Virus record (IMG/VR): IMGVR_UViG_3300010413_000013
Coordinates: 1-64,000 of that record
DNA length: 64,000 bases
DNA from: a virus
Strand: one strand, 5' to 3'
Shown here piece by piece: positions 51,201-64,000 of the stretch (position 1 is the first letter of the stretch; each line of letters opens with the position of its first letter). The position numbers were made by a program, and so were the translations under genes. Below the pieces are notes generated by a model that was not told the origin of the DNA, ran no database searches, and was given only the letters and a program-made list of their open reading frames with translations.

Positions 51201-52498
51201 ACCCACCTCCAAAAACCACTATCAGTTCTAGCTTTCAGTTTGTCTAATTCAGTTACTACTTTTGATATTTCTTTTTCAATAGTAATTTTTCGTATGTTTT
51301 TTTCATAGTCTTCCATTGCTTTAGCTAACTCTTCAGTAGACATAGTAGCAGCTTCAAGCATGGTTAATTGTCCTTCATCTATTAGAAAGAGCACATCCCT
51401 ATCAGTAATTTTATACAAAGTTTCTATTGCTTTTAGAAATTGGTTTACATATCCCATTCTATCTAATACAGACTGTATAAAAGTTTCGCCTTTTTCTTCT
51501 GCATCTTCTTCAGCTTTACTTAAACCAAAAAGTCTAGTAATTATATTATCAAAAGCACCTACTACTCTTGCTGATATGGATACTATTCTAGTTAAGCCTA
51601 CATATAATTCTCCAAAGGATTCTGCTATATTTGAAATCATACTTCTTAATGCAGTTCCTTTTACCATATCAGTAAGATCTTTTAATGCTTCTGTTGTACC
51701 CATAACAGCTTTAGAAAATCCTGCTAAAAAAGCTTTTCCAAATTCAGTTTTAAGATTTTCTATATACCTACGCATGGAAAGTAATTGCTTCCCTGCTTTA
51801 GTCATTGCTGCTTCATATGATCCTTGTATAGCTACTGCTTGTTCATATACAGCATTTAATTTTGCTTGCATCCTTTCATTATCATTTAATTCATCAGTAG
51901 TTTTATTCATACTATCTGCTAGCTTTTGATATGACTGCTCAAAGCTAACATTTAAACCCATTGTCCGTAGTACTCTAATCTGTCCAGTTTGTAGACCATA
52001 AATTAATTGTTCATAAGCAGCAGAAGAATCCATGTTAGCAATTACTGCTGCATCTTGTGCTATCCTTGCAAGCTTGGTAGCATCAGTAAAATCTATTTGC
52101 GCTTGCATTGCTCTAATAGTATTTTGCCTTGCTTGCGTAGAAGTAATACCTAGCTTTTCTAGAGATTCTACTACTTCATACAATTCCTTTGAAGTGTGTC
52201 CTGCTGTTTGCCCCATTCGTTCCAGAACTACATCTAGCACCTCCTCCCTAGCAGCTAATAGAGTAGACTCCTTTATAAGATCAATTGCTTTTCTAAATGT
52301 GTGTATAGCAGTAGTAACCGCTGCTAATGCCAGTAGCCAATGTGACTTTAGCTTTGTAACCCATCCCATAGAAGACTTTGCGGTAGCACCAGTAGTAGCT
52401 TCTAGTTGATTAACTGATCCTACAGCTTGTTTCATCCCTTTGACAAATTGGGTATTATCTACTCCTAATTTAGCTATCAGGTTTCCTATAGTAGCCAC
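48299..52498 (-). CDS. Tail tape measure protein
   Basis: 1399 aa; MATIGNLIAKLGVD start, helical, Gly-rich hydrophobic segment. Confidence 0.92.
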   Translation of the reverse strand: MATIGNLIAKLGVDNTQFVKGMKQAVGSVNQLEATTGATAKSSMGWVTKLKSHWLLALAAVTTAIHTFRKAIDLIKESTLLAAREEVLDVVLERMGQTAGHTSKELYEVVESLEKLGITSTQARQNTIRAMQAQIDFTDATKLARIAQDAAVIANMDSSAAYEQLIYGLQTGQIRVLRTMGLNVSFEQSYQKLADSMNKTTDELNDNERMQAKLNAVYEQAVAIQGSYEAAMTKAGKQLLSMRRYIENLKTEFGKAFLAGFSKAVMGTTEALKDLTDMVKGTALRSMISNIAESFGELYVGLTRIVSISARVVGAFDNIITRLFGLSKAEEDAEEKGETFIQSVLDRMGYVNQFLKAIETLYKITDRDVLFLIDEGQLTMLEAATMSTEELAKAMEDYEKNIRKITIEKEISKVVTELDKLKARTDSGFWRWVFGVPIEEDEKRIGELQKKLSVLREQLKEAKPVKTMAESAEEVANTFNAVADGLENVAVQTQTLADIKFGDEAKGILLGGFFKEASLQTDRFSSSLDDLEDSLKGVGEEAEVAGKEISNIIKDLDSFELKIPTLSDIKFSTDLQKSVQEAFFPEAGFKDVEASFERTTEAMSEDIEVNVGMKYEETLENCDIANKIFLERVQNATADVYYDIFRGQLNTFEDFADRMLDYFIRTLAEMAAASSQMNIFQGLLGGLTGGITGGWASGGLLGAIGGGLKGLWTDIISFGGNLWSTGKNMLNGLGDLLGLSGKILDGFTGLGMGFGVGKIGQALGIFKEDSFADLGASIGGAIGSAILPGIGSFLGSLGGGLLGSLFGGGGKPNTTIGPFTENRTEKWGSDLLSGTVQWHKDRWAEDSWQVQGAEALHDIVNAAAEEVYQLADQTIAALPDEFGDMLKDKLAGSNIEFSTKGMKLDLQGDLDAQATQWAEMVQKDMIAVFNSAYEQVRRVFVTTNVNEMVRSTGIKGRSLGYVDASNLIAAAGGFDELAASVDNFVNVFLTDTQRFSLQSTEIHHAFNDLGLALPRTREEFVKLIKTLDLTSNAGRQTYTSLLGMISSLDSYYGYIEQQEAARKAEAEARAREAQLRAEQARRAAELAQAEAARAAEAARINFKNIQSTYEDITKYTRNLGRVQNEEEAAFSSMTDTFDNAIERLKELGAASSLIATVDLQRTTAANKLTALYAQKRRNVFTDVVYYMKSLLGDSTALESAIEGVENQFDSFIETMKELGGSTQELNNIRAREPEAIRRVIEAYSDTLSEGFLDTMADIGKGFQDFKDRLSTSDLAPVQTTQNIRGIFERMLSTTQNAEGLDKLYSYFENSYLPFMKQFAADEAQYKDIYQAGLDAIKQVQVEVGSIDDNQDLAERIVAEMRRDGIPVQMVDGEYRVIVQLDSKVIADAIASQKETNPNL

Positions 52499-52500
52499 TG

Positions 52501-52839
52501 CTATTTACGCCTCACTCTTTTTATTCTCTTCTGTTTATTCTTATGGCTTTCATTTACATCCTTGGCAAATGCTTTAAGTGCTTCTCTAGCTTTTGCCATG
52601 CTCTCTTCCGGTACTTCAAAAAATTGTTTTTCTAATTCTTCTAAGTCCGGTAAATAATCTTCTACCTTATATACTTTGTTTGATCCTTTCTTTTGTGGAG
52701 TAGTATTAAGAATTGTACACACTATCATAATTGTTCTTCTTAATTCTTCTCTAGGACCAAAAGGTTCGAGTAGATGAAATGCTTTCCAATACTTTAATTC
52801 TTTAGCAGACATTCTAGAAAGCATTTCATCTACTGTCAT
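52501..52839 (-). CDS. Tail assembly chaperone, frameshifted (GT) part
   Basis: The -1 frame is open from the slippery site (KLILRPERIFYHRLAGHLGMTVDEM...). Confidence 0.8.
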   Translation of the reverse strand: MTVDEMLSRMSAKELKYWKAFHLLEPFGPREELRRTIMIVCTILNTTPQKKGSNKVYKVEDYLPDLEELEKQFFEVPEESMAKAREALKAFAKDVNESHKNKQKRIKRVRRK

Positions 52840-52889
52840 CCCTAAATGCCCGGCCAGTCGATGGTAGAATATTCGTTCTGGTCGGAGTA

Positions 52890-53300
52890 TCAGTTTCCCA
52901 CTAGTTCTTCTACATCATCATCAGTCATACCAGAAAGTCTTTGTGCTACCTCAAATACTCTATTGATAGCTTTACCAGACTTCTCTCCTAGTTTCTCTAT
53001 ATCTTCTCCTTTAAAAATCCTTTTCCCATTTTCATTTCTAATACACCTTGCACAAAGCCTAGCTCTTAGATTTGCGAGATTCCTTTTAGTATTTCTACCT
53101 TTACCAGTAGTAATCATAGTTTCCTCAAAGGCATCACGTTCCTTTGCTGTTAAACCATATACCCAAACACTTCCTCCCCACTCTGGAACTTCTACTAATT
53201 CACTCACTACATCTTGTACATTAAATATTTCATCTTTGGTTAAAATCTTAACCTTTGCTTCTACTATTTCTACTTCTTCCGTTTTTTTCTCGTCTTCCAT
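52890..53300 (-). CDS. Tail assembly chaperone (gpG-like)
   Basis: VEVPEWGGSV.V.GLTAKERD; ends with the G GGA AAC TGA slippery heptamer. Confidence 0.85.
   Translation of the reverse strand: MEDEKKTEEVEIVEAKVKILTKDEIFNVQDVVSELVEVPEWGGSVWVYGLTAKERDAFEETMITTGKGRNTKRNLANLRARLCARCIRNENGKRIFKGEDIEKLGEKSGKAINRVFEVAQRLSGMTDDDVEELVGN
52893..52899 (-). other. -1 programmed ribosomal frameshift site GGGAAAC
   Basis: X XXY YYZ heptamer just before the TGA stop; joins the two chaperone ORFs. Confidence 0.85.
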
Positions 53301-53347
53301 GTTTTTCTCCTTTTTAAGAAATGCCGTTTGTTTTCATTAAATTGTTA

Positions 53348-53770
53348 TTATGAACTTACACTGATTGCACCGGAAACTTTTAACGTAACATTAATAGTAA
53401 TCTTATCATCCAAAGGAACATCCAACGGTAGATCAGTAACATAAGCAGCAAATTCCAAAGTAGTAGCAGCAGAATCAGGTAAGACAATTTGATAATTTAC
53501 AGAAGTATCTGTATCAAAATCATCCTTCATGTCTTCATAACCTTGGTGTGTAAAGTTCATTACTAGTGATACTTCACCGGGATCTCTGAAAGCACTGATA
53601 AATTCCCGATAACCTCCAGCAGAATCTAGGGAAGTAACATCAATGAAAGCTCTTGACATACTAGGACCAGAAATACTATTTACTTCTGCTACTGCCGTAA
53701 AGCTTTCATTACTTGTTCCATCACCTCTTTTAAATGATGCACCGACACCACTAATTGCATTTGTAGTCAT
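53348..53770 (-). CDS. Major tail tube protein
   Basis: ISGP...IDVTSLDS.GGYREFI...RDPGEV...TLKVSG. Confidence 0.88.
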   Translation of the reverse strand: MTTNAISGVGASFKRGDGTSNESFTAVAEVNSISGPSMSRAFIDVTSLDSAGGYREFISAFRDPGEVSLVMNFTHQGYEDMKDDFDTDTSVNYQIVLPDSAATTLEFAAYVTDLPLDVPLDDKITINVTLKVSGAISVSS

Positions 53771-53792
53771 AACTTAAAAACAAGCCTCCTTT

Positions 53793-54185
53793 TTACTCTG
53801 TTCTATTTATCTCAAAATTAATACTCCACTTATATCTACCTCTATCATCCTGACCTAGATTGATAGGTTCAGAAACTTGAAAAACAGATATATATCTAGT
53901 ACCTCCTATAGTTACATTATGCTTTCCATGTAGAGCAGTAGTAATACTTCTACATAGTGCATAAGATTCTTCATATTGGTTAATCTTCCCTCTAACTTCT
54001 ATCATCACTCTAGGAAATTCATCTACTCTACTTGCATCTGGAAATGGTCTACCTCCACCAGAATCATATATGCATATACATTCATCCGGCACATCTGGCA
54101 TAGATCCTATAAATAGATCTGTACCAAAAGTAAATAAACCAGAAGTATCTAACCAATTCAATAAATCTTTTGATGCTGGATTCAT
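53793..54185 (-). CDS. Tail terminator/completion protein
   Basis: LFIGSMPD.PD...IYDSGG...LGQDD.GR..WSINF. Confidence 0.75.
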   Translation of the reverse strand: MNPASKDLLNWLDTSGLFTFGTDLFIGSMPDVPDECICIYDSGGGRPFPDASRVDEFPRVMIEVRGKINQYEESYALCRSITTALHGKHNVTIGGTRYISVFQVSEPINLGQDDRGRYKWSINFEINRTE

Positions 54186-54766
54186 TTTATTTCAGCTTTC
54201 TTTTTTATAGTGTCTAGTATCTTTTTCTTATGCTTCACTAAAGGTTCTTCTAAAAACTTCCACCTACCGGCTTTTCTTGTACTATAAACCTTTCTTTTAC
54301 TTCCCTTCTCGGGTTTATATATCTTTCCTGTAGGACTTTGCCCTCCTGTCTTACCAGCTCTAGGATTCTCATGTACAAAAGCAGCATAAGAAGCAGAAAA
54401 ACCTATTACAGACATTAGTATAGAAGAATTTCCAACAATTTGTTTTGACTCTTGTACAGCAGCATTATGATCTACTCTAGCTTTTTCTGCTTGTTGGCTT
54501 GTACCATGAAAATTATTTGGTATTCCTCCTTCTGCTACTATTGCTTTTTCCATCCAACCACTAGGAGCAGGACCAATAACATATGCACTATTCTGCAAAT
54601 TACCAGTTACTACTGGACAAATCTGCACTGCTTCTCCTTTAATATAAAGAGCAGCACTAATTAAACCAGAAGCCGTTCTATTATTGATCTTCTTAATCTC
54701 ACTATTAATATTCTTAATAGTTTCTTCTATTCCCTTCCACTCTATTATTTTTGTTTGCTGTACCAT
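54182..54766 (-). CDS. HK97 gp10-like neck protein
   Basis: CPVVTGNLQNS, YAAFVHE, WKFLE. Confidence 0.8.
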   Translation of the reverse strand: MVQQTKIIEWKGIEETIKNINSEIKKINNRTASGLISAALYIKGEAVQICPVVTGNLQNSAYVIGPAPSGWMEKAIVAEGGIPNNFHGTSQQAEKARVDHNAAVQESKQIVGNSSILMSVIGFSASYAAFVHENPRAGKTGGQSPTGKIYKPEKGSKRKVYSTRKAGRWKFLEEPLVKHKKKILDTIKKKAEIK

Positions 54767-54770
54767 TCTA

Positions 54771-55130
54771 CTACTCCAAATAATAGAACTTTATAAAATC
54801 AGATCCTAATAGATCTGGTATCTTTCCTGTTCCTATTATCTTTCTAGATGCTGCTACATCTCTAGGACCAGCAGTAGAAGATGATAAATCATCTAAATCT
54901 CCTAAGAACAGGAAACCATCTATTGCCAAGGTAGAGTTAGTAAAAACTTTAGCAGTAGACATTTTCTCTTCTCCATCTAAACCTATCAACAACTTTTCTT
55001 TATCTTCCCATCTACAATCAATCTCTACTGGTGCATCATATGTTTCACCATACCCACTATTAGTAGAAGTCGCCCAATAGACCGCTGTCTGTTTATACTT
55101 CCTCTTCATCCTATTAATTAAAGCACTCAA
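54771..55130 (-). CDS. Head closure protein
   Basis: QTAVYW...PVEIDCRWED; position in the neck module. Confidence 0.7.
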   Translation of the reverse strand: MSALINRMKRKYKQTAVYWATSTNSGYGETYDAPVEIDCRWEDKEKLLIGLDGEEKMSTAKVFTNSTLAIDGFLFLGDLDDLSSSTAGPRDVAASRKIIGTGKIPDLLGSDFIKFYYLE

Positions 55131-55489
55131 TTTATCACCTCAAAGGAACAAGTCTTCTTTCCTGTTTGTGCTAATATACCAGAAGTATCTAGTAGTAATA
55201 CTTGCTGCCCATACATAGTACCCTCCAAACCTTTCCACGTTTGCCCACTATAGGTAGCTTGTGCATCTCCTATCTTCTCTGATACTGCTTCCCTTGCCAA
55301 TGGAGTACATGATACTAGATGTGCTGCATACCATCTAGCAATATTCTTCAATCTTTCGGCAGCATGTATTCCAGTTAGTTTCTCTGTTACTATTGAATTT
55401 GCTACTTCACAAAATGGATCTAATTGTGCAGAAGTCAAATCTGTATCCATTATCTCCAATACATCAGCACCAGTTACATAATTTGTCAT
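55127..55489 (-). CDS. Head-tail adaptor
   Basis: WYAAHL, SEKIGD, L.GT.YGQ..LLLD.SG. Confidence 0.75.
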   Translation of the reverse strand: MTNYVTGADVLEIMDTDLTSAQLDPFCEVANSIVTEKLTGIHAAERLKNIARWYAAHLVSCTPLAREAVSEKIGDAQATYSGQTWKGLEGTMYGQQVLLLDTSGILAQTGKKTCSFEVIN

Positions 55490-56190
55490 TTTACTCCTCC
55501 TTCTTCTTTATAATGCCAGAGTTTAGGAGATACAAAATCTTCTATTTCTTCTTTGTGGTATTCCAAGTCTAAATGTTTTATCATTTCTTCTGTTCCAGTA
55601 AAGTCACCATTGATAGCTTTAAATGGCCAATACTCTATTAGATCTATACTTAACATCTTCATTTCTGCAAATCTCTTCTTGTGTTCATTTATCCAAACCA
55701 TCCAACCATTTCTTTTATTGAATGCTCTCATAAAAGAAGTCTTTAAACAAGAAGAACAAATATCATAGTCATCTCTTCTAACCAAAACCCATTTTGCTTC
55801 TGGAAACATTCTAACCCATATAGGATAGATCAAACAAAGCTTTGCTCCTTTAAAGAACCACACCGATTTACCATCATACCCTTGTCTATATAAAATATCC
55901 ATTACTTCTTTCTTGTGTCTATTACATATCTCCATACTACCATTTGCATCCCAAGTAACTCTATCAATAGGAGGTAATGGATTCTGCCCCATTGGATCTA
56001 CTGCTATACTTTTTAAATATGGTTTAATTACTTTATTTCGGATAGCAGTATTTTCATATTGTCCTTTCTGATTATTGGGAGTGCTACCAACTACTTCTCC
56101 TCCCCATGCTCCGCATCTACTTATTATCCCTGCGGTAAGAGAAGTTCCACTTCTAGCACATCCAGTTATTAGTATAGGTTTATCTTTCAT
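55486..56190 (-). CDS. Sulfotransferase-like protein
   Basis: PILITGCARSGTS (5'-PSB loop), KGQYEN, WFFK, FPEAKWVLVRR...ICSS. Confidence 0.85.
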   Translation of the reverse strand: MKDKPILITGCARSGTSLTAGIISRCGAWGGEVVGSTPNNQKGQYENTAIRNKVIKPYLKSIAVDPMGQNPLPPIDRVTWDANGSMEICNRHKKEVMDILYRQGYDGKSVWFFKGAKLCLIYPIWVRMFPEAKWVLVRRDDYDICSSCLKTSFMRAFNKRNGWMVWINEHKKRFAEMKMLSIDLIEYWPFKAINGDFTGTEEMIKHLDLEYHKEEIEDFVSPKLWHYKEEGGVK

Positions 56191-56921
56191 TAGAAGTCAC
56201 CATTCCATTCTTTTCTAAATACTGCTGGATTCCCTGCATAAACGCCCGGTTCATCTATATTCTTAACTACTACAGATCCCATACCTATAAATACTTTACT
56301 ACAGATATGAATACCATTTCTAATAGTAGAATTTAATCCTATAAAACAATCATTTCCTATTAATGCAGATCCACCTATTACTGTTCCATCAGTAATAATA
56401 TTTCTGTTTCCTATTCTTACATTATGTCCTATATGCACACCACAACCTATTTTAGTTTGACTTCCTATTACTGTATAATCCAAAGTAGCCCTAGCAATAG
56501 TAGAGTTTGCTCCTACTACTACTCCCTTTTTCAAAACAACACTTCCCATGTGTTTTAAACCCACTAATTCATTTTTACTGCTCTTTGGTTTATACACTGC
56601 ATATCGCATTCCTTCATTACCAATAGATGCTGTAGGATGGATATATTCTGCATCAATCATATCTGCTCTATGATCCTTGTCTCTATTTACTTCATTGTGA
56701 TAACGAATAAAATCTGCTATATAGTTTTCTCTAGGAAGTAGTAGACAAGCTTCTTCCTGTACCTCCTCCTTCCTAAGAGTTAATGGAATAAGAATTGCTA
56801 CTTCACAACAGTAGGCTTTTGCAATATTGATTTGTGCTTCAGTTTTAGCATAAGTCATAGCATAGTCTACTAACAAATTAACAGAACAGGTTCTATAGTA
56901 TTTCTTCATCAGATCTAACAT
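56190..56921 (-). CDS. Left-handed beta-helix acyltransferase (LpxD/NeuD-like)
   Basis: Hexapeptide repeats; GANSTIARA.L..TVIG..TKI...VHIGHNV; YAGNPA. Confidence 0.85.
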   Translation of the reverse strand: MLDLMKKYYRTCSVNLLVDYAMTYAKTEAQINIAKAYCCEVAILIPLTLRKEEVQEEACLLLPRENYIADFIRYHNEVNRDKDHRADMIDAEYIHPTASIGNEGMRYAVYKPKSSKNELVGLKHMGSVVLKKGVVVGANSTIARATLDYTVIGSQTKIGCGVHIGHNVRIGNRNIITDGTVIGGSALIGNDCFIGLNSTIRNGIHICSKVFIGMGSVVVKNIDEPGVYAGNPAVFRKEWNGDF

Positions 56922-57630
56922 CTTCCTGCTCCTTTGCCATTATCTCAAAAGGATGTGGTGGTTCTTCTGTTTCTCTGTAGATCTTCTGTACCCAACCTAC
57001 TCCACATTCTTTAATTCTAGGTTTACCATGAAACAGTATTACTCTAGCATCTTTTGGTTTTCTTCCAAACTTGCAATGATGTTTAAAACTATAGTACCCA
57101 TCAAAAACACTTTGTACTGTTTTTATTTTAAATCGTCTTTCTTCTAGTTTATTATAAGTATATCTCTGCTCCATCTTATATTTAAAATCTTCTTCTTTAA
57201 ACATCTTGAATAACCAAGTCCAATTACCATTCCAAATCTGTAAACCAGAACAAAACTTCTCTCCTCTATTCTTTGCTAGTGCTTGTGGTTCAGCCATATA
57301 GAAAACATCTTCTGGACAAGTTAAAGCAATCTCTCCCAATCTATCTATATTATCTACTACCAACATATCAAGACCAGAAGCAATTGTTGGTCCCTTTGTT
57401 CGGAACATTTCTATCATGCTCCACCAGCCGGGAAGATTTTTCTGTAATTTAATTGTTTCCATGTATGGGTAGTCAATTTCTAAATCAGTATAACAAATAA
57501 ATCTATGTGGTATTAATAAATGCTTCTTCACTTGTCTACAAAGTGTAATAGCATCAAACTCTTCAAAATCTCCACCAGATTTAAGTGTTACTACAAAGTT
57601 TACTATTTGTTTTTCAGCTAGATTTGCCAT
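56893..57630 (-). CDS. Glycosyltransferase (GT-A, GT8-like)
   Basis: LKSGG, FICYTD, LPGWWSMIEMF, GLDMLVVDNID, SGL..W, EQ, ILFHGKPR. Confidence 0.8.
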   Translation of the reverse strand: MANLAEKQIVNFVVTLKSGGDFEEFDAITLCRQVKKHLLIPHRFICYTDLEIDYPYMETIKLQKNLPGWWSMIEMFRTKGPTIASGLDMLVVDNIDRLGEIALTCPEDVFYMAEPQALAKNRGEKFCSGLQIWNGNWTWLFKMFKEEDFKYKMEQRYTYNKLEERRFKIKTVQSVFDGYYSFKHHCKFGRKPKDARVILFHGKPRIKECGVGWVQKIYRETEEPPHPFEIMAKEQEDVRSDEEIL

Positions 57631-58153
57631 TTTTGTCTAACCTTTCGTTTGATGGAATTTCTTCCATAAATTTAGCTGGATTACCAACATATACTCCATA
57701 GTCATTACACTTGCCTACTACTACTGCTCCTGCTCCTATAAATGTTTCTCTGCCAACAACACATCCCGGTAGTAGTAAAGCACCCATTCCAATTCTTGCT
57801 CCATACATTACTGTAGGAGGAGTAGGATTAAATGGTGCGGTTTCTCTTCTCAAATGTACCATTCGTTTATCATTACCAGAAACTACCATCTGTCCTATAA
57901 ATACTTTATCTCCTATATTCATTCCCTTTGTTATGTTGCATTGTGCTTGAATGAAACAATCTTCTCCTATTGTCAACCATCCTTCTATTACTGTATTATG
58001 CCCTATCTTCGTTCTCTTCCCTACTATTGTTTCTGGTCTAAGTACACAATTATGACCTATAAAAACACCATCCCCAATAATACAACCATCCTCTATTACT
58101 GTATTATGTCCTATTACTACATTCATTCCTATCTTTACATTTTTACCTATCAT
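57614..58153 (-). CDS. Left-handed beta-helix acetyltransferase (WbpD/FdtC-like)
   Basis: Hexapeptide repeats; VFIG..V...ND; GAGAVV; VGNPA. Confidence 0.85.
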   Translation of the reverse strand: MIGKNVKIGMNVVIGHNTVIEDGCIIGDGVFIGHNCVLRPETIVGKRTKIGHNTVIEGWLTIGEDCFIQAQCNITKGMNIGDKVFIGQMVVSGNDKRMVHLRRETAPFNPTPPTVMYGARIGMGALLLPGCVVGRETFIGAGAVVVGKCNDYGVYVGNPAKFMEEIPSNERLDKNGKSS

Positions 58154-58788
58154 AACGTATCTTCCAATCTAACCCTAGGAACTATTAATGGATCTATTGC
58201 TGTTTCTTCTGAAGCATTTACAATCTCTACTTTCAATGCTTTCAAATCTTCTACTATTGTATGCATACATGGTAAATATCTACTTTTATATGCGTGTGGA
58301 ACAGGAGGACTTTTATGATAGTTATGCCAGTTAAAAGTTACTACTCCTTTATGATCTTTCTTCCCCTGCATATCAAAACCTAGTAGTACTATCTTCTTTG
58401 CTCCAAAGTGGTAGGCAACATTTATTGCTGACATTCCACTATTCCCATTCCATGATATAAAACCCGGTTTTGTTTCTACTCCTTTTGGTTTCCCCCTCTT
58501 CCATATCTTTACTACATATAAATGATATAGACGTTGGCAAGAAGTCATCCGTAATCCGGGATATTTTAAAAACTCTTCTCTATTCCATCCCCACCATTTA
58601 CAATCTCCAAAGTAACAAGCATCTACCCAAGTACCAAGTTTAAATGCATCATTTACACCTAATACTCTTCTATCATGTATTAGGTGTAGTGGAGATTGTT
58701 TTAAGCTAGGTCCACCACCTATTACATAGACTGTTTCTCCCTCCCATATTTTAGGAGGGAGAAATCTCCTTTTCTTATCGACATTCAT
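58150..58788 (-). CDS. Maf/DUF115 (MptE-like) sialyltransferase-fold protein
   Basis: YVIGGGPSL, GVNDA, NSGMSAINVAYHFGAKKIVLLGFDM, IVNAS. Confidence 0.75.
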   Translation of the reverse strand: MNVDKKRRFLPPKIWEGETVYVIGGGPSLKQSPLHLIHDRRVLGVNDAFKLGTWVDACYFGDCKWWGWNREEFLKYPGLRMTSCQRLYHLYVVKIWKRGKPKGVETKPGFISWNGNSGMSAINVAYHFGAKKIVLLGFDMQGKKDHKGVVTFNWHNYHKSPPVPHAYKSRYLPCMHTIVEDLKALKVEIVNASEETAIDPLIVPRVRLEDTL

Positions 58789-59276
58789 TATTCTATCTTT
58801 TGCCTACGTTTTTTACTCTCAGCACCGCTTGCAATTTTTTCTTCTTGTTCTTCCTCTTCTTTTTCTTCTTCATCCTTGCCCCCTACTTCTACTGTTGGTT
58901 TTTCTGGTGCTCCCATATTTATAAGTTCATCAGCTTCTTTACTACTAAGAAGCCGATTATTTAATTTTTCTCCTGTATCCTCATTAACTACATCAAATCT
59001 ATTAGAACCCCTACTTATCTTCCTTAATGCAGCAGCATCTTTTGTTTCTTCTACTTCTACTTCTTGTCTTACTATCTCATGGTCAACCAACACACCACCA
59101 GAAATTACTTCTAATTTAAACTCCCAACCCTGTACATTCCTACTATCTGGAAAATCATTGAATGTTTCACCGGGGTAGATCTTTGCTCTTACTGCTTTTG
59201 ATGTACCTTCACCAGCTATTATAATCTGGTGTGGTCCATATCCCTTCTTTACTCTATAAGTTCTTTTGTTAGCCAT
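58788..59276 (-). CDS. Hypothetical head-associated protein
   Basis: Directly after the capsid gene; probable start MANKRTY after AAGGAG. Confidence 0.6.
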   Translation of the reverse strand: MANKRTYRVKKGYGPHQIIIAGEGTSKAVRAKIYPGETFNDFPDSRNVQGWEFKLEVISGGVLVDHEIVRQEVEVEETKDAAALRKISRGSNRFDVVNEDTGEKLNNRLLSSKEADELINMGAPEKPTVEVGGKDEEEKEEEEQEEKIASGAESKKRRQKIE

Positions 59277-59292
59277 TTTTTTCTCCTTTTTA

Positions 59293-59320
59293 AAGTACTC
59301 CCCCAATTGGGGGAGTACTT
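59293..59320 (-). terminator. Perfect palindromic hairpin after the major capsid gene
   Basis: AAGTACTCCCCCAATTGGGGGAGTACTT. Confidence 0.7.
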
Positions 59321-59330
59321 AGTTTAAACA

Positions 59331-60365
59331 TTAGTGATATACAACAATACCACATCTAGCATTCTGATCTGCTCTCGGCTGCGGAAGCATAATAGTCATT
59401 ACCATAAAATGCTGGCTCAAACCACCTCTGCTCTCCCACTGAAGAGTAGTCATAGGAAGACCAACTACCATTCTCATAACATCCTGCGTCAACTGCAACA
59501 TAACAACATAATCGGCAGTAAGTTTATCTGCTACCGTAATAAACTGAATACCATCTACTTCCATAAGTCTCTGCCGAATAGTCTTATCAGAAGCAGCTTT
59601 AAAATCAGCATCAATAGCAGTTTCATAGTTAGTAGGAATGAAGATACCATACGGTCCATAATGGTAGGCATCTATCAAAGCCTGTTTCATAGCCAGTACA
59701 TCAGCAAGCATTGTTTCACCAGTAGCAGCAGAATCATCCCAATCAGCAGTAAGAGATCCAGTATTGGCATTCGTAAAATCCTTAATACCATAAAGTACTC
59801 CACCACCAAAAGTAAAGTTAGAAGAACCATTACAAGTAAGTTCTTCCACCATCTCTGCTACTTTTCTTCCTGCCATTTCAGCACTGGTAGTATCCAACGG
59901 TTCACCCAATGTTCTAGACGCTTCCAACTGCCGAATATTTACTCTAAACTCCTTGTAAATAATCGGGAGAGGCATATACTTCGTGCTCCAGACCGGACGA
60001 TCTTCTACCGCAGTGGGCAGTGGGTCCATTCCAAGAGAAGCATCATTAAATTCATTGAGATCTTCATACTGCAATACGGTCTTTCCTAGGCCATTGGGAA
60101 TACTGTACACCAGACCTTTAGAAATAAAAGTATTTGCACACACTAGCCTATTCCTAGCAGCTTTCAAAACGGCATCGTCAAACTGCTTCCATTCATCTCT
60201 ACGAAGAGTAGCATTTGCTACAGGAACAACTACTCCATTCTGATTCATCATGTAGCATCTACCATCATTTTCTCTCCATGTACGCAATGCACCAATATTG
60301 AAATTAGTAGCCATAAGCCGTTCTGCTACTGATCCTGTGGCTTGTCCATTAAGAATATAATCCAT
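59331..60365 (-). CDS. Major capsid protein (HK97 fold, encapsulin/Linocin-like clade)
   Basis: ATLRRDEW..FD.AV, PLPIIYKEF....RQLEASR..G.PLDT...E.A.RKVAE..E, YG; follows the protease and decoration genes. Confidence 0.88.
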   Translation of the reverse strand: MDYILNGQATGSVAERLMATNFNIGALRTWRENDGRCYMMNQNGVVVPVANATLRRDEWKQFDDAVLKAARNRLVCANTFISKGLVYSIPNGLGKTVLQYEDLNEFNDASLGMDPLPTAVEDRPVWSTKYMPLPIIYKEFRVNIRQLEASRTLGEPLDTTSAEMAGRKVAEMVEELTCNGSSNFTFGGGVLYGIKDFTNANTGSLTADWDDSAATGETMLADVLAMKQALIDAYHYGPYGIFIPTNYETAIDADFKAASDKTIRQRLMEVDGIQFITVADKLTADYVVMLQLTQDVMRMVVGLPMTTLQWESRGGLSQHFMVMTIMLPQPRADQNARCGIVVYH

Positions 60366-60397
60366 TATCCAAATTGCCTCCTTTAATTTTTATTTAA

Positions 60398-60862
60398 TTA
60401 TTTAAACATGCACAGACAAAACCCATAGGGATGTGCAGCAGCACCAGCAGAAGAAGAAGAAAGATCAATTGCTTCTAGAGCAATAGCAACAACGTCTTCT
60501 TCCATAACAACAGCAGAAGAATCACCGTGTGCTTCTCTCACTTCTCCATTACCAGCAGATACCAACTTATCTCCAATGGCAATATTTTCTCCGATCTTAA
60601 CCTTCAAGTAGCATTTCGCACCGGGAGCAGGAATTACTGCTCTTGCCCTATCAGTAGTAGCATAAGCATCAGTCACTCCTTCACCTTCCAGATCATTCTC
60701 AATTGCTACCATAACAGGAATACATGATCCACCATCAGTAGAATGTTTCTGGAGTGTATTTGAAGAAGTAAGTTCAAGCAAATGCCCCGGATAGAAAGCT
60801 GCTGCCGGAACTCTTTCAATATACTCTACGTTTCCACCAGCAATAATAGTAGTAACTGTCAT
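60398..60862 (-). CDS. Capsid decoration/cement protein
   Basis: PGHLLE...ENIAIGDKLVSAGNG...VAIALEA; immediately upstream of the capsid gene. Confidence 0.7.
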   Translation of the reverse strand: MTVTTIIAGGNVEYIERVPAAAFYPGHLLELTSSNTLQKHSTDGGSCIPVMVAIENDLEGEGVTDAYATTDRARAVIPAPGAKCYLKVKIGENIAIGDKLVSAGNGEVREAHGDSSAVVMEEDVVAIALEAIDLSSSSAGAAAHPYGFCLCMFK

Positions 60863-60892
60863 AATATAATTATGCCTCCTTTAAATCTTAAA

Positions 60893-62470
60893 TTATTCTT
60901 TGTTCATATCTGCAAGAGTAGGTACAGCCATTGGTTCTACTCCTTCAGTATTAAAGACACCACCAGACCTACCACTATAGTCTGCTTCTCCACCTTCCGG
61001 TACAGGAGCTTCTACCAAAGCAGCAATTGCTTCCAGTTCTTCAATGTCTTTTGCTTTAAGCTGATCCTCTGTAAATTTGTTCTTCTCACTTCCGGTAATA
61101 AGAGTAATCAGCTTTGTCTTCTTTGCATCATACTCTTTCAAACCAATCCTAACAGTTTTCTGAACATCTTCTGGAAGATCTTCCATTGTCACTTTTTTCT
61201 CTTCATTATTCACCTGTTTCCCTCCTTCTTCTCCACCTTCTGCCGGGGGAGTTTCCGGTACATCTGGTTGTTTATAAGCGGTTTCCTCAATCTTGGCAAA
61301 TGCTTCTTCATTCAAGCCAAGAAGCCATTCCTTGTCAGTTTCCCCATAGGGAGTATCCTCGTTTGCGATTAATGCATTCACTCTGTCTTCACAACACATA
61401 TTATTAATTGCCTCCTTCTTCATTTTGTTTTTTACTTCTACATATTCTTTTTTAACTTTCACCTCAATAGGTGCTTCGTTAAATTCTACTTCACCGTTTT
61501 GAGTAGTAGAGTATTTTACTTTATATAGTTTACTCTCTTCACCTTCCTTATATCTCTCATAAACTATATAATCCTTATATGCATCTACAAGCCAAAAGCT
61601 CGTTCCTAGTGGTGCTTGTGACCTTACTGCATTAGCTAACTTCTCCAACTTCTCGAACATTCCATCTTCGGTCTTTGCATAGTCTAGCAAACCACTTAAA
61701 AAATGTTTTATCATTCCTTTTATTATATTATCATCTTCTTTTGCTGCTTGATTCCTTAGTAGTCCACACCCATCTGAAGTAGAACATGCTCCTTTATCAT
61801 TTGGCAGCAAAGCTAGATGGTCCCCTCTAATTTCTGTAACAGTTCCTTCATAATCTTCTCCATTCCATGTACCACCTTCCATATCTACAACTGCTACTAC
61901 TCCTGTACTTATTTCGCCTTTGTTTTTATAGCTTAGTACATCATTGATAAAGTTTGGTGCTTGTTCTTCTATCTTAGCAGTATTTATATATAGATCTGCT
62001 TTAATCTTATTATCAGCATATCTACTATTAAATACATTTCCTACCGTACATCTTTCATAAACTTCTGGAGTATCACAAGGTACATACTGTCCATCATCGT
62101 CTTTAGGATGCCCTACTGTTATTGGTGCTTTGTTCCAAACATTGGCATATTTCTCCAGTACATCACTAGAGTAGTAAAGCGGTCCTGCTCCTACTCCACT
62201 ATGCACACCCTCTACTAGTAGTACAGCAGGAATTACTGTAGTAGGAGCATTATTAAATGTTATGTTCTTAGTTTCATTTACCAACAAAGTCACTTTGACT
62301 TGCAAATTATTATTCATTTGGTTGTTTGTCCTTTTCTTTTTAAATTGACTGTAACAAATAGCTGCTCTCTGTTTAGAATCTGAATATTCTTTTTTCATTA
62401 CTTCACTTCCCATACATCTAGAAACGAAGTCTGATTGTTTCTCTCCCTTGCTTGGAGTAGGTATTGGCAT
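60893..62470 (-). CDS. Prohead protease (DUF2213-like) fused to scaffold
   Basis: WN.APIT.GHP, EISTG, DHLALLP..KGACS..DGCG; acidic C-terminal scaffold region. Confidence 0.85.
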   Translation of the reverse strand: MPIPTPSKGEKQSDFVSRCMGSEVMKKEYSDSKQRAAICYSQFKKKRTNNQMNNNLQVKVTLLVNETKNITFNNAPTTVIPAVLLVEGVHSGVGAGPLYYSSDVLEKYANVWNKAPITVGHPKDDDGQYVPCDTPEVYERCTVGNVFNSRYADNKIKADLYINTAKIEEQAPNFINDVLSYKNKGEISTGVVAVVDMEGGTWNGEDYEGTVTEIRGDHLALLPNDKGACSTSDGCGLLRNQAAKEDDNIIKGMIKHFLSGLLDYAKTEDGMFEKLEKLANAVRSQAPLGTSFWLVDAYKDYIVYERYKEGEESKLYKVKYSTTQNGEVEFNEAPIEVKVKKEYVEVKNKMKKEAINNMCCEDRVNALIANEDTPYGETDKEWLLGLNEEAFAKIEETAYKQPDVPETPPAEGGEEGGKQVNNEEKKVTMEDLPEDVQKTVRIGLKEYDAKKTKLITLITGSEKNKFTEDQLKAKDIEELEAIAALVEAPVPEGGEADYSGRSGGVFNTEGVEPMAVPTLADMNKE

Positions 62471-62472
62471 TA

Positions 62473-62643
62473 TTAGTCTGTCTCCATCTCTATCATTTTT
62501 GTATTCTCTTTTAAATCTAATAATTCTTGTGCTACCTTATCACCTTTCTTTGCTTTTTTCTTCAACCTAGCAGAATTAAACCAATCGTCGTTCAAAGACT
62601 CTTCTACTAAGTCTACTACAAATGGTGCTACCTTCTTTCCCAT
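62473..62643 (-). CDS. Small protein downstream of MuF-ART (immunity candidate)
   Basis: About 56 aa from MGKKVAP..., translationally coupled to the upstream gene. Confidence 0.5.
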   Translation of the reverse strand: MGKKVAPFVVDLVEESLNDDWFNSARLKKKAKKGDKVAQELLDLKENTKMIEMETD

Positions 62644-62644
62644 T

Positions 62645-64000
62645 TTACATCCCCTTCCAAAATAAGTCATTTATAGGTACTTGTTTATTTCCACCTAATA
62701 CTATAAACTCTCTTTCAGACATAAACTTATTCTTCCACCAAAGCTCATGTGGTAGTACTACATCTTTGGTACTCATTTCTATCCTAGCTGTAACCCCACC
62801 AGCGTTTTTTCCAAACCCATCTGCTATTGACACTTCATCTGTATATCCAGACAAAGCATTTTCTCTAATTGGAACCAAACCATAGCCTTCTTTTTGTGCT
62901 TCTAAACACCTTGCTTTAAAGGCTGGTCCTGTTTTACTTCCGTCAGTTCCACGATATAGAGTAATTTTCTTTTGTCCTACTGCTCTATAATATTCTTGGG
63001 TAGCTGCTCTCACTCTTATATACTCGTCTATTACTCTGTCTTCCATACCACTTGCCAAATATTTCTTTACTTCTTTCTCTATAGACTCACTGGATACAAA
63101 AGCTTTTATTTCTCTGTTCTCTACTTTTGCTGCTACAAACTTTAAAGAAGCAGGATACGAACCTTGTGTAGACCCTTGCCAAATAGAAAGGAGGTTCATC
63201 ACATTGGGGCATTCTTCGCTTATCTTCTTTCTGATAACACTCTGCATTGATCCTTCTGTCTTATCTTCTAATCCTTCAATAAACTTTCTGTACTCCTTCC
63301 TGTAAAGCTTGTATACATTCTCGTATTCCCCTCTCAGTGTTCCTACTTCTTCCGCTTCATACTTTTTACCTATCGGATACCTTTTAATCTTTACTGGTTC
63401 TTTCTTCTTTTTAGCATAGTCTAATTTTGCTTTAGCTTTTTCTATAGCCTTTTTCTTTATAGCTATCTGCTTCTCCAGTGCTGCTAATGCTTGTTGTTTA
63501 GCAAGCAGTTCTTGTTTAACCTTTACTGCTTTTATGGCTTTTACTCCTAATGCTTTTTCCCTCTTAGCAGCAGCTTTAGTATTGCTGCCATGAATACTTT
63601 TCATATAAGGTAGTAAAGCACATCTGCAATTTGGTTCACCTATTAACTCTTCTGCTTCTTGCCTAGTATATATTCTACCATGCCTTTCTATATGTGTATC
63701 TCTAACCCTTTCATCTAGTGCTGTCCACCACTGTACTAATATTTCTTCATTTACTATAGGTTCAAAATTCTCGTATTCGGTTAATGCTCCTAAATTATGT
63801 GTTCTTACTATTTCAGTTCGAGTAATCAATCTTGCTCTATTGATTGCTCTCATATTCTTTCCACCTACTGTTACCATACCAGTTTTATCTTTGTCAATAG
63901 TATCCAACATATTCCTAGCAATTTGATATGGTCCCTTACCTTCTGCTAGTCCTAATGATAGTACTCTACTTATCTGCCGATCCATTACTTCTGTAATGCC
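62645..64000 (-). CDS. Mu gpF-like head morphogenesis protein with C-terminal ADP-ribosyltransferase-like domain (5' truncated)
   Basis: RARLITRTE, WWTALDERVR..H...HG, EPNCRC (MuF); C-terminal TLYRG, ALSGYT, SEREFIVLG (R-S-E). Confidence 0.85.
   Translation of the reverse strand, partial: GITEVMDRQISRVLSLGLAEGKGPYQIARNMLDTIDKDKTGMVTVGGKNMRAINRARLITRTEIVRTHNLGALTEYENFEPIVNEEILVQWWTALDERVRDTHIERHGRIYTRQEAEELIGEPNCRCALLPYMKSIHGSNTKAAAKREKALGVKAIKAVKVKQELLAKQQALAALEKQIAIKKKAIEKAKAKLDYAKKKKEPVKIKRYPIGKKYEAEEVGTLRGEYENVYKLYRKEYRKFIEGLEDKTEGSMQSVIRKKISEECPNVMNLLSIWQGSTQGSYPASLKFVAAKVENREIKAFVSSESIEKEVKKYLASGMEDRVIDEYIRVRAATQEYYRAVGQKKITLYRGTDGSKTGPAFKARCLEAQKEGYGLVPIRENALSGYTDEVSIADGFGKNAGGVTARIEMSTKDVVLPHELWWKNKFMSEREFIVLGGNKQVPINDLFWKGM

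Follow-up and report, generated by a model that had tools for sequence, protein, structure and literature searches.

A conserved, hypervariable island with a Maf-type transferase core and a sulfotransferase in the head–neck operon of environmental tailed phages: possible virion glycosylation and sulfation

The first 64 kb of the 76,009-bp IMG/VR record IMGVR_UViG_3300010413_000013 (this whole 64-kb stretch is referred to below as the window) contain a cassette of five overlapping genes within the late head–neck operon of a tailed phage. The cassette is one version of a conserved, hypervariable and fast-changing gene island. Islands of this kind keep a fixed position in the virion gene module, begin and end with two constant enzymes that are coupled to each other, vary strongly in their interior, and encode no membrane partners. 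Folds and motifs relate the first constant enzyme to the flagellin glycosyltransferase Maf (hereafter, the Maf core) and the second to the sulfotransferases (hereafter, SULT). Judging from gene content and structure models, the island may be a fully cytoplasmic glycosylation system, by which virion proteins would be glycosylated and sulfated; in our judgment, belief and doubt in this interpretation are about evenly balanced.

The first enzyme of the island is constant: it is the Maf core, a DUF115-like protein. Its predicted activity is the transfer of an ulosonic acid activated with cytidine monophosphate (CMP), either 3-deoxy-D-manno-octulosonate (Kdo) or a nonulosonic acid. The protein of the window matched phrog_4603 at 8e-33. 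Single-sequence phmmer searches against PDB were uninformative for all three proteins of unclear assignment, and profiles and folds were required. A family profile of 34 members matched Campylobacter Cst-II (7e-4) and MptE (0.01), and the alignment to Cst-II placed the GxGPS and SG...G.D CMP-binding motifs together. The AlphaFold model of the protein had a predicted local distance difference test score (pLDDT) of 93, and its top Foldseek match in PDB was Magnetospirillum Maf (5mu5; 6.8e-5). Comparison with the same structure by VIA gave a Z of 15.8 and a root mean square deviation of 3.3 Å over 182 residues, corresponding to Maf residues 257–510, with lower Z values for Cst-II (11.9; range for Cst-I/II 11–12) and for the MptE kinase (11.3). 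This part of Maf includes the catalytic residues E324 and D415 of 5mu5 (bioRxiv 10.1101/2020.06.03.131540). Since the match is confined to it, the phage protein appears to be a Maf catalytic core without the flanking domains. Residues D62, S117-G118, and D139 were invariant or nearly so across the 34 family members, and the spacing of D62, S117, and D139 resembles that of D272, S334, and D357, which CbMaf requires (bioRxiv 10.1101/2020.06.03.131540); the resemblance is one of spacing only and not a residue-level alignment. Maf enzymes are Ser/Thr O-glycosyltransferases of flagellin that can use CMP-Kdo and CMP-Neu5Ac besides their native donors (bioRxiv 10.1101/2020.06.03.131540; PMC11339370). 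The top matches of both Foldseek and VIA thus confirmed the original prediction, made from the sequence of the window, that this gene is Maf/DUF115-like.

SULT is usually the last gene of the island and abuts the gene of the DUF4054 head–tail adaptor. Its model and motifs identify it as a predicted sulfotransferase of the type using 3'-phosphoadenosine 5'-phosphosulfate (PAPS). In an alignment of 35 sequences, the motifs ITGcARSGTS (5'-phosphosulfate loop) and VRR..DI..SC (3'-phosphate) were invariant, with R13-S14-G15-T16-S17 and R138-R139...S147 as the invariant residues, and both motif regions aligned to tick tyrosylprotein sulfotransferase. The SULT model (pLDDT 91) had only sulfotransferases among its top 13 Foldseek matches in PDB, namely, Stf1, the tyrosylprotein sulfotransferases TPST1/2, CurM/OLS, and Stf9, with a probability of 1.0, a template modeling (TM) score of ~0.6, and identities of 13–18%. 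The match to PF13469 (Sulfotransfer_3) was borderline (27.6 bits, cut-off 27); most of the >450 homologues found at ~50% identity had a precomputed PF13469 match. Fold, both PAPS motifs, and the Pfam family therefore uphold the earlier sulfotransferase call. A profile search of 1.84 billion cluster representatives yielded 409 SULT clusters at E ≤ 1e-30. Neither a tblastn search of SULT against phage records nor a DNA-level search of the cassette region against 50,697 phage records gave a match.

Conservation of the island was assessed in two surveys of IMG/VR. A profile scan seeded with SULT gave 333 loci, of which 80 were fetched and 45 spanned the region from capsid to SULT. To avoid seeding bias, a second scan was seeded with the capsid protein: a single-sequence query confirmed no relative, an alignment query found 583 stretches with a capsid relative, and 46 of the 80 loci fetched spanned capsid to adaptor. 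SULT was located directly upstream of the DUF4054 adaptor gene in 78 of the 80 SULT-seeded loci. The Maf-core domain was present in all 46 capsid-seeded spanning loci and SULT in 39 of them; the Maf core stood just after the adaptor in two of the 46 and was fused to a left-handed beta-helix (LbH) domain in one. In none of the 45 SULT-seeded and 46 capsid-seeded spanning loci did SULT occur without a Maf-core gene; the reverse does occur. Fused proteins were found in both orders among the 409 SULT clusters, with the Maf core preceding SULT in P0228 and following it in P0244 and P0256. Because of this one-sided co-occurrence and the two-way fusions, the Maf core and SULT appear to be functionally coupled.

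The order of genes was constant in all 45 SULT-seeded spanning loci: capsid, usually a g172-like gene (g172 being a small head-module gene of the window), Maf core, a variable interior, SULT and, where the contig reaches it, the adaptor. The distance from the end of the capsid gene to the end of SULT varied from 1.9 to 10.3 kb, and the islands were ~1 to 9.5 kb long. In its smallest form (L070), the island comprised no more than a small protein, the Maf core, and SULT. Between phages whose capsid proteins were 89% identical, only 16–20% of the island gene clusters were shared. The lineage of the window phage has no cultured member; its closest cultured relative is Brevundimonas phage StAshley, whose capsid protein is 40% identical and whose genome has the same gene order, with a g172-like gene followed by the adaptor gene, i.e., an empty site. 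The original prediction had suggested a survey of gene neighborhoods in IMG/VR, and the result strengthened the link between the island and the virion module, since the island is kept at its site and the same pair of enzymes occurs in the head modules of unrelated phages (see below). In some relatives, a Maf core was located after the DUF4054 adaptor (L164:17917-19690, L193:4200-5265, and L195:3882-4902), and in L164 a second pair of Maf core and sulfotransferase followed the adaptor. The insertion point within the head–neck module is therefore not absolutely fixed.

The interiors of the islands contained diverse transferases: GT2, DXD sugar-binding, GT-D (153 bits), GT7N, and GT1-like glycosyltransferases as well as GT9-like domains fused to methyltransferases. 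Other interior genes encoded radical S-adenosylmethionine (SAM) and B12-radical SAM enzymes, SAM methyltransferases, a Zn-dehydrogenase, a short-chain dehydrogenase/reductase (SDR), sugar-nucleotide dehydratases/epimerases of the GDP-mannose-dehydratase type, a split transketolase, a second sulfotransferase (67 bits), and DUF3326. Short genes resembling adenosine 5'-phosphosulfate (APS) kinase were found just upstream of SULT in L023, L042, and L075, the one in L023 (9544-9999) scoring 76.5 bits to TIGR00455; this position gives indirect support to PAPS as the predicted sulfate donor of SULT. The split transketolase N- and pyrimidine-binding subunits (L031:4832-5629 and L035:4764-5246) occurred with the Zn-dehydrogenase and SDR in one island type, which suggests a branched or two-carbon-extended sugar. 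A 670-aa island protein (L048:5762-7774; also in L054) had a SPASM-type iron–sulfur domain and a weak, sub-cut-off match to an intein-splicing domain (22 bits). Since its cluster mates are only 313–322 aa long, it may be an intein-interrupted radical SAM enzyme.

In phages unrelated to that of the window, too, Maf-core genes lie in or beside the virion module. The cultured bacterium Euryhalocaulis caribicus JL2009 carries a prophage with the gene order terminase, portal, MuF, 96-aa gene, Maf core, sulfotransferase, prohead protease, structural protein, and capsid, in which the pair of enzymes occupies L088:7396-8612. In Pseudomonas phage PMG1, a Maf-core gene lies between the capsid and adaptor genes, and in Pseudomonas phage PAJU2 it lies between neck genes, beside a methyltransferase gene. 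In the cassette of Caulobacter phage CcrColossus (gp126-131), the Maf core directly follows a large tail gene, and genes for a nucleotide-sugar transferase, a methyltransferase, and a GT9 enzyme come after it. Among cellular relatives, Halioxenophilus aromaticivorans (L100) encodes a 34%-identical sulfotransferase between flgL and a block of DegT, HMW1C-like, FkbM, LbH, and AMP-ligase genes, and this neighborhood is, to judge by its genes, a flagellar glycosylation cluster. BLAST labeling assigned a flagellar context to only two Halioxenophilus genomes of 27 loci of non-phage type, most of the other cellular contexts being unannotated. Further cellular relatives combine tetratricopeptide repeats (TPR) with Sulfotransfer_3 and Sulfotransfer_1 domains, or GT47 and Sel1 repeats with a sulfotransferase domain (L102:7473-9530, L105:7509-9515, and L108:6351-8663).

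The absence of membrane partners bears on the likely site of action. A hydropathy screen covered 377 open reading frames (ORFs), comprising 358 island ORFs from the 45 SULT-seeded spanning loci and 19 proteins of the window. No polytopic membrane protein was found among them, and none exceeded two borderline hydrophobic windows. It follows that the islands lack genes for a flippase, polymerase, ligase, Gtr-type protein, or initiating phosphoglycosyltransferase, and the screen of these ORFs likewise gave no indication of the membrane components of seroconversion or undecaprenyl-phosphate-type systems (Wzx, Wzy, WaaL, GtrA/B, and Oac). The site of assembly must therefore be the cytoplasm, with either a soluble acceptor or an intermediate of the host as substrate. 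The genome carries its own helicases, primase, polymerase, single-stranded DNA-binding protein, and recombinase. No tyrosine integrase was found in the complete 76-kb genome, and PF00303 gave no match there, which indicates no ThyA-family enzyme; other routes of base modification were not searched. Together these features argue against seroconversion and against DNA glycosylation based on hydroxymethyl-pyrimidines.

The five overlapping genes at 55486-58788 were described in the original prediction, and the ORF list gave exactly these coordinates on the minus strand (Table 1). Direct terminal repeats are present in the record, whose completeness is rated at 100%. The record originates from a marine sediment metagenome; identical pieces, at low depth, were also present in a second study labeled as soil metagenome. 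The late operon lies on the minus strand and runs through a gene for a MuF-like 446-aa protein, a 525-aa head gene, a decoration-like gene, and the major capsid gene. These are followed by g172, the five cassette genes, the DUF4054 adaptor gene, a head–tail connector gene (phrog_3881), more neck and tail genes, and a gene for a 1399-aa tape measure protein. The capsid protein matched PF19774 with 84 bits, Linocin_M18 with 49 bits, and phrog_771 at 3e-26, and the adaptor matched PF13262 with 24.9 bits (cut-off 23.9) and phrog_302. The earlier placement of the cassette between capsid and neck genes holds as to location, but the immediate upstream neighbor is g172 and not the capsid gene. Successive cassette genes overlap by 1, 29, 17, and 4 nt, the Maf-core gene overlaps g172 by 1 nt, and SULT overlaps the adaptor gene by 4 nt. 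From the capsid gene to the adaptor gene, no terminator-like site was detected on the minus strand, and promoter-like matches were no more numerous than in shuffled sequence. The tight coupling of the cassette to the head genes, which had been proposed from the overlaps, was thus corroborated; the coupling is translational and includes the neck genes.

Table 1. Island genes and their neighbors in the window, listed in the order of the late operon
Feature	Predicted product	Length (aa)	Position (strand)	Basis of assignment
Major capsid gene	Major capsid protein, HK97 fold type		59331-60365 (-)	PF19774 (DUF6260), Linocin_M18, phrog_771
g172	Conserved small head-module protein	172	58788-59306 (-)	Family alignment
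Maf core	DUF115-like/Maf-core transferase	212	58150-58788 (-)	phrog_4603, Maf fold
LbH179	Hexapeptide-repeat acyltransferase, sugar O-/N-acetyltransferase type	179	57614-58153 (-)	PF00132 (90.6 bits)
GT245	GT-A fold, GT8-like glycosyltransferase	245	56893-57630 (-)	phrog_1962
LbH243	PglD/NeuD/LpxD-like hexapeptide N-acyltransferase	243	56190-56921 (-)	PF00132 (55.3 bits)
SULT	PAPS-type sulfotransferase	234	55486-56190 (-)	PF13469, motifs, fold
DUF4054 adaptor gene	Head–tail adaptor		55127-55489 (-)	PF13262, phrog_302

The interior of the island in the window is formed by one glycosyltransferase and two acyltransferases. GT245 had no match among Pfam families and matched the glycosyltransferase family phrog_1962 at 5e-22. 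Its family profile (A3) matched Skp1 alpha-galactosyltransferase (1e-3), the GT8 enzyme GlyE (9e-3), and glycogenins (0.03–0.5). At the DxD position, DLD is the consensus of the family, and GLD is found in the window protein, which keeps only the second Asp, the invariant D88. Homologues of GT245 occurred in 62 of the 80 related loci and those of LbH179 in 13 of the 80. Both LbH proteins exceeded the PF00132 Hexapep cut-off of 27. The best NCBIfam matches of LbH179, all below cut-off, were NeuD/PglB/VioB (TIGR03570; 79.9 bits, cut-off 160.8) and WbbJ. LbH243 also remained below the NCBIfam cut-offs (TIGR01853 LpxD, 120 vs. 242.5; TIGR03570 NeuD, 90 vs. 160.8). It has a divergent 90-aa N-terminal domain, and its sequence shows an IGH motif and the C-terminal tail GVYAGNPA, which we take to be typical of the PglD/NeuD type. 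The glycosyltransferase call for GT245 agrees with phrog_1962 and the GT8-like profile matches, and the two LbH acyltransferase calls are supported by PF00132, the LpxD and NeuD subfamily cut-offs not being reached.

The product of g172 is a possible acceptor of the glycan. According to the family alignment, it consists of an N-domain, an acidic linker, and a C-terminal motif of the GGGRYDV.N type. No Pfam or PHROG family was matched, and an Atlas search retrieved only hypothetical viral clusters with scores <0.9. The gene is not specific to the island: StAshley has a homologue (E 1.3e-4) with the adaptor gene immediately after it. A search for a Ser/Thr- or Tyr-rich acceptor among the virion proteins of the window singled out only a 140-aa putative tail tube protein (22% Ser+Thr), a signal too weak for it to be retained as a candidate on this basis. 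The Glu-rich tail of g172 is encoded by GAA-rich low-complexity DNA. In four DNA runs, unrelated contigs and many loose ends accumulated at 58606-58972, with a summed depth of 27–146 vs. ~0–60 in flanking bins; the spike arises because the low-complexity part of g172 draws unrelated contigs. No alternative island at 52000-63000 was present among the contigs of these four runs.

Some contigs of the window phage type have been binned into archaeal metagenome-assembled genomes, namely, L085 into Bathyarchaeia and P0098, a 60-kb contig, into Heimdallarchaeaceae. In addition, the capsid protein of Halorubrum phage Hardycor1 is 31% identical to that of the window. The archaeal bins could be a binning artefact, or some members of the group could infect archaea.

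Under the proposed mechanism, the Maf core would take an acidic keto-sugar that the host supplies in CMP-activated form, either CMP-Kdo or a nonulosonic acid, and place it on Ser/Thr of a virion protein before or during assembly of the particle. The capsid, decoration, g172, and tail tube proteins are candidate acceptors. The GT8-like enzyme would append a hexose, and the two hexapeptide acyltransferases would acylate the sugars or their nucleotide precursors. SULT would act last, sulfating the glycan with PAPS of the host, and the particle would thereby receive a strongly anionic coat, variable among strains. The logic would be that of flagellin glycosylation, in which soluble enzymes modify a self-assembling structural protein in the cytoplasm. 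The link to protein glycosylation is drawn because the nearest fold is that of Maf, a protein O-glycosyltransferase, and because of the flagellar cluster of Halioxenophilus. Profile, fold, and comparative tests thus sustain the original prediction in part, namely, in how it identified the five enzymes and in their tight coupling to the genes of head and neck. The donor need not be a nonulosonic acid: CMP-Kdo of the host is plausible and at least as likely, since Maf enzymes have been shown to use it and the phage encodes no CMP-sugar pathway. It is possible, and we suggest it only tentatively, that a widespread lineage of tailed phages and some marine alphaproteobacterial prophages coat their virions with a strain-variable, sulfated ulosonic-acid O-glycan by means of pared-down flagellin machinery.

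Several points weigh against virion glycosylation by the island. Acceptor and donor are inferred, as are the sequence of the steps and sulfate as the transferred group. The Pfam scores of both key enzymes lie at their curated cut-offs or under them: for the Maf core, PF01973 (MptE-like) reached 27.2 bits with a cut-off of 34.6, and only residues 115–141 were matched. The phage protein lacks the N- and C-terminal domains of Maf, which has ~600 aa in three domains; the flanking domains of Maf are assumed to dock flagellin. In size, the Maf core is nearer to relatives directed at oligosaccharides or lipopolysaccharide (LPS), such as Cst-I/II and the weakly matching Kdo-III transferase WaaZ (E 3e-4). 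Searches for NeuB, a CMP-sugar cytidylyltransferase, and APS kinase detected no donor pathway in the window, so the donors must come from the host. Finally, accessory genes of siphoviruses commonly insert at the junction of head and tail genes.

Part of this evidence would also fit remodeling of the host envelope, in which the enzymes would, for example, add extra Kdo, acyl groups, and sulfate to LPS core, lipid A, or another glycoconjugate at the cytoplasmic face, with the effect of masking receptors on infected cells and debris or of changing the envelope before lysis. The closest non-Maf relatives of the Maf core, Cst-I/II and WaaZ, act on oligosaccharides or LPS, LbH243 is most similar to LpxD, and the families of the GT9 heptosyltransferase-like genes in related islands are known chiefly for LPS synthesis. 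Temperate phages are, moreover, well known to encode surface-glycan modification. We nevertheless regard envelope remodeling as unlikely, given that the 377 screened ORFs include no polytopic membrane protein and that the phage has no tyrosine integrase and has its own replication machinery. With expression tied to late head genes, time for export would be short; the genes are retained in the head–neck module across several unrelated phage lineages, and the nearest fold is the protein-directed Maf. SULT might instead sulfate Tyr (or Ser/Thr) of virion proteins directly, in parallel with glycosylation. Human and tick tyrosylprotein sulfotransferases were among its best folds (E ~1e-4, TM 0.6), tyrosylprotein sulfotransferases were the only PDB sequences that aligned to both PAPS-motif regions of the SULT profile, and cellular relatives are fused to the protein-docking repeats TPR or Sel1. 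On the other hand, the mycobacterial glycolipid sulfotransferase Stf1 matched the fold equally well, fusion to a GT47 domain is seen in one cellular relative, and the dependence of SULT on the Maf core in the surveyed loci, together with the fusions, fits action on the product of the Maf core; direct protein sulfation thus seems quite improbable.

The transferred group might not be sulfate at all: SULT might use another 3'-phosphorylated, PAPS-like donor, as with the O-methyl phosphoramidate of Campylobacter, and the modification would still be anionic. The kinase beside SULT in some islands is indeed short and below the cut-offs of APS-kinase equivalogs. We give this version very little credence, because these kinases fit adenylyl-sulfate kinase models best (the TIGR00455 match of L023), all top fold matches of SULT are true PAPS enzymes, and the window, with neither a kinase nor a cytidylyltransferase of its own, requires a common host metabolite. 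Phage glycosyltransferases that put varied glycans on DNA are known (Pyle et al., 2024, as listed among the references of PMC12619734), and the transferases of the island might likewise attach a glycan to modified bases of the phage DNA. The lack of a ThyA-family hydroxymethylase in the complete genome, the position of the genes in the head–neck operon, apart from the replication genes, and nearest folds that belong to protein- or oligosaccharide-directed enzymes make DNA hypermodification extremely unlikely.

If virion glycosylation and sulfation by the island are true, virion glycosylation would reach well beyond the mycobacteriophages and would be a common, fast-evolving trait of environmental phages. 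Its chemistry would be new, combining an acidic keto-sugar with sulfate, and the glycan would be the first sulfated one on a prokaryotic virus. The charge of the surface and the identity of its glycans bear on particle stability, aggregation, sticking to sediment and mucus, and recognition by hosts, grazers, and antibodies; a new, fast-evolving layer on the virion surface would thus affect charge, adhesion, and evasion of recognition or grazing. Viromics papers list viral sulfotransferases as putative auxiliary or host-metabolism genes (e.g., PMC8290583), and for the SULT family this view would then be wrong. The enzyme logic common to flagellin glycosylation suggests exchange between the two systems, and the minimal Maf core could serve as a tool for protein glycosylation. 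The question is directly testable, since cultured systems carry related cassettes, among them Pseudomonas phage D3 besides PMG1, PAJU2, CcrColossus, and the Euryhalocaulis prophage.

Among known systems, seroconverting phages (GtrABC, Oac) resemble the island in that sugar-modifying enzymes are phage-encoded. Those enzymes, however, are membrane proteins of temperate phages and act on O-antigen in the periplasm or membrane, whereas the island is without polytopic proteins and the genome without a tyrosine integrase. The cellular cluster of Halioxenophilus has a similar repertoire of enzymes, all of them soluble, beside a polymerizing surface protein; it differs in being a cellular locus of putative function with an HMW1C-like glycosyltransferase in place of the Maf core. 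The PF13469 enzymes (TPST1/2, Stf1/Stf9) have the same fold as SULT, the 5'-phosphosulfate loop RSGTS, and the 3'-phosphate motif RR...D....S in common with it, but SULT is compact (234 aa) and encoded in a virion operon. Maf itself (Magnetospirillum magneticum 5mu5; Clostridium botulinum and Geobacillus) has the same catalytic fold as the phage Maf core, and in both cases the enzymes are soluble and cytoplasmic and their genes adjoin those of a self-assembling surface structure. The phage protein differs in size (212 vs. ~600 aa), in its position in a head operon rather than a flagellar locus, and in the lack of an encoded CMP-sugar pathway.

Our literature search found nothing on a phage Maf or sialyltransferase in a head module, on this island, or on a sulfated glycan of phage virions, and mentions of 'sulfotransferase' in phage papers referred to PAPS reductases or lists of auxiliary metabolic genes. 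The only demonstrated phage-encoded virion glycosylation found is that of mycobacteriophages (clusters O and F1), whose phage-encoded glycosyltransferases modify capsid and tail tube proteins, as summarized in a citing paper (Freeman et al., 2023, via PMC11600133). As described there, the enzymes are, as in the island, soluble and phage-encoded, and are accompanied by a methyltransferase. The host phylum and the enzyme set are different, and the citing papers' descriptions mention neither a Maf core nor a sulfotransferase. The island, in turn, has two constant end genes, a fast-changing interior, and a fixed site, and its chemistry is predicted. Virion glycosylation itself is thus already established; new here are the set of Maf core and sulfotransferase, the predicted chemistry, the architecture of the island, and the breadth of the lineage that carries it.

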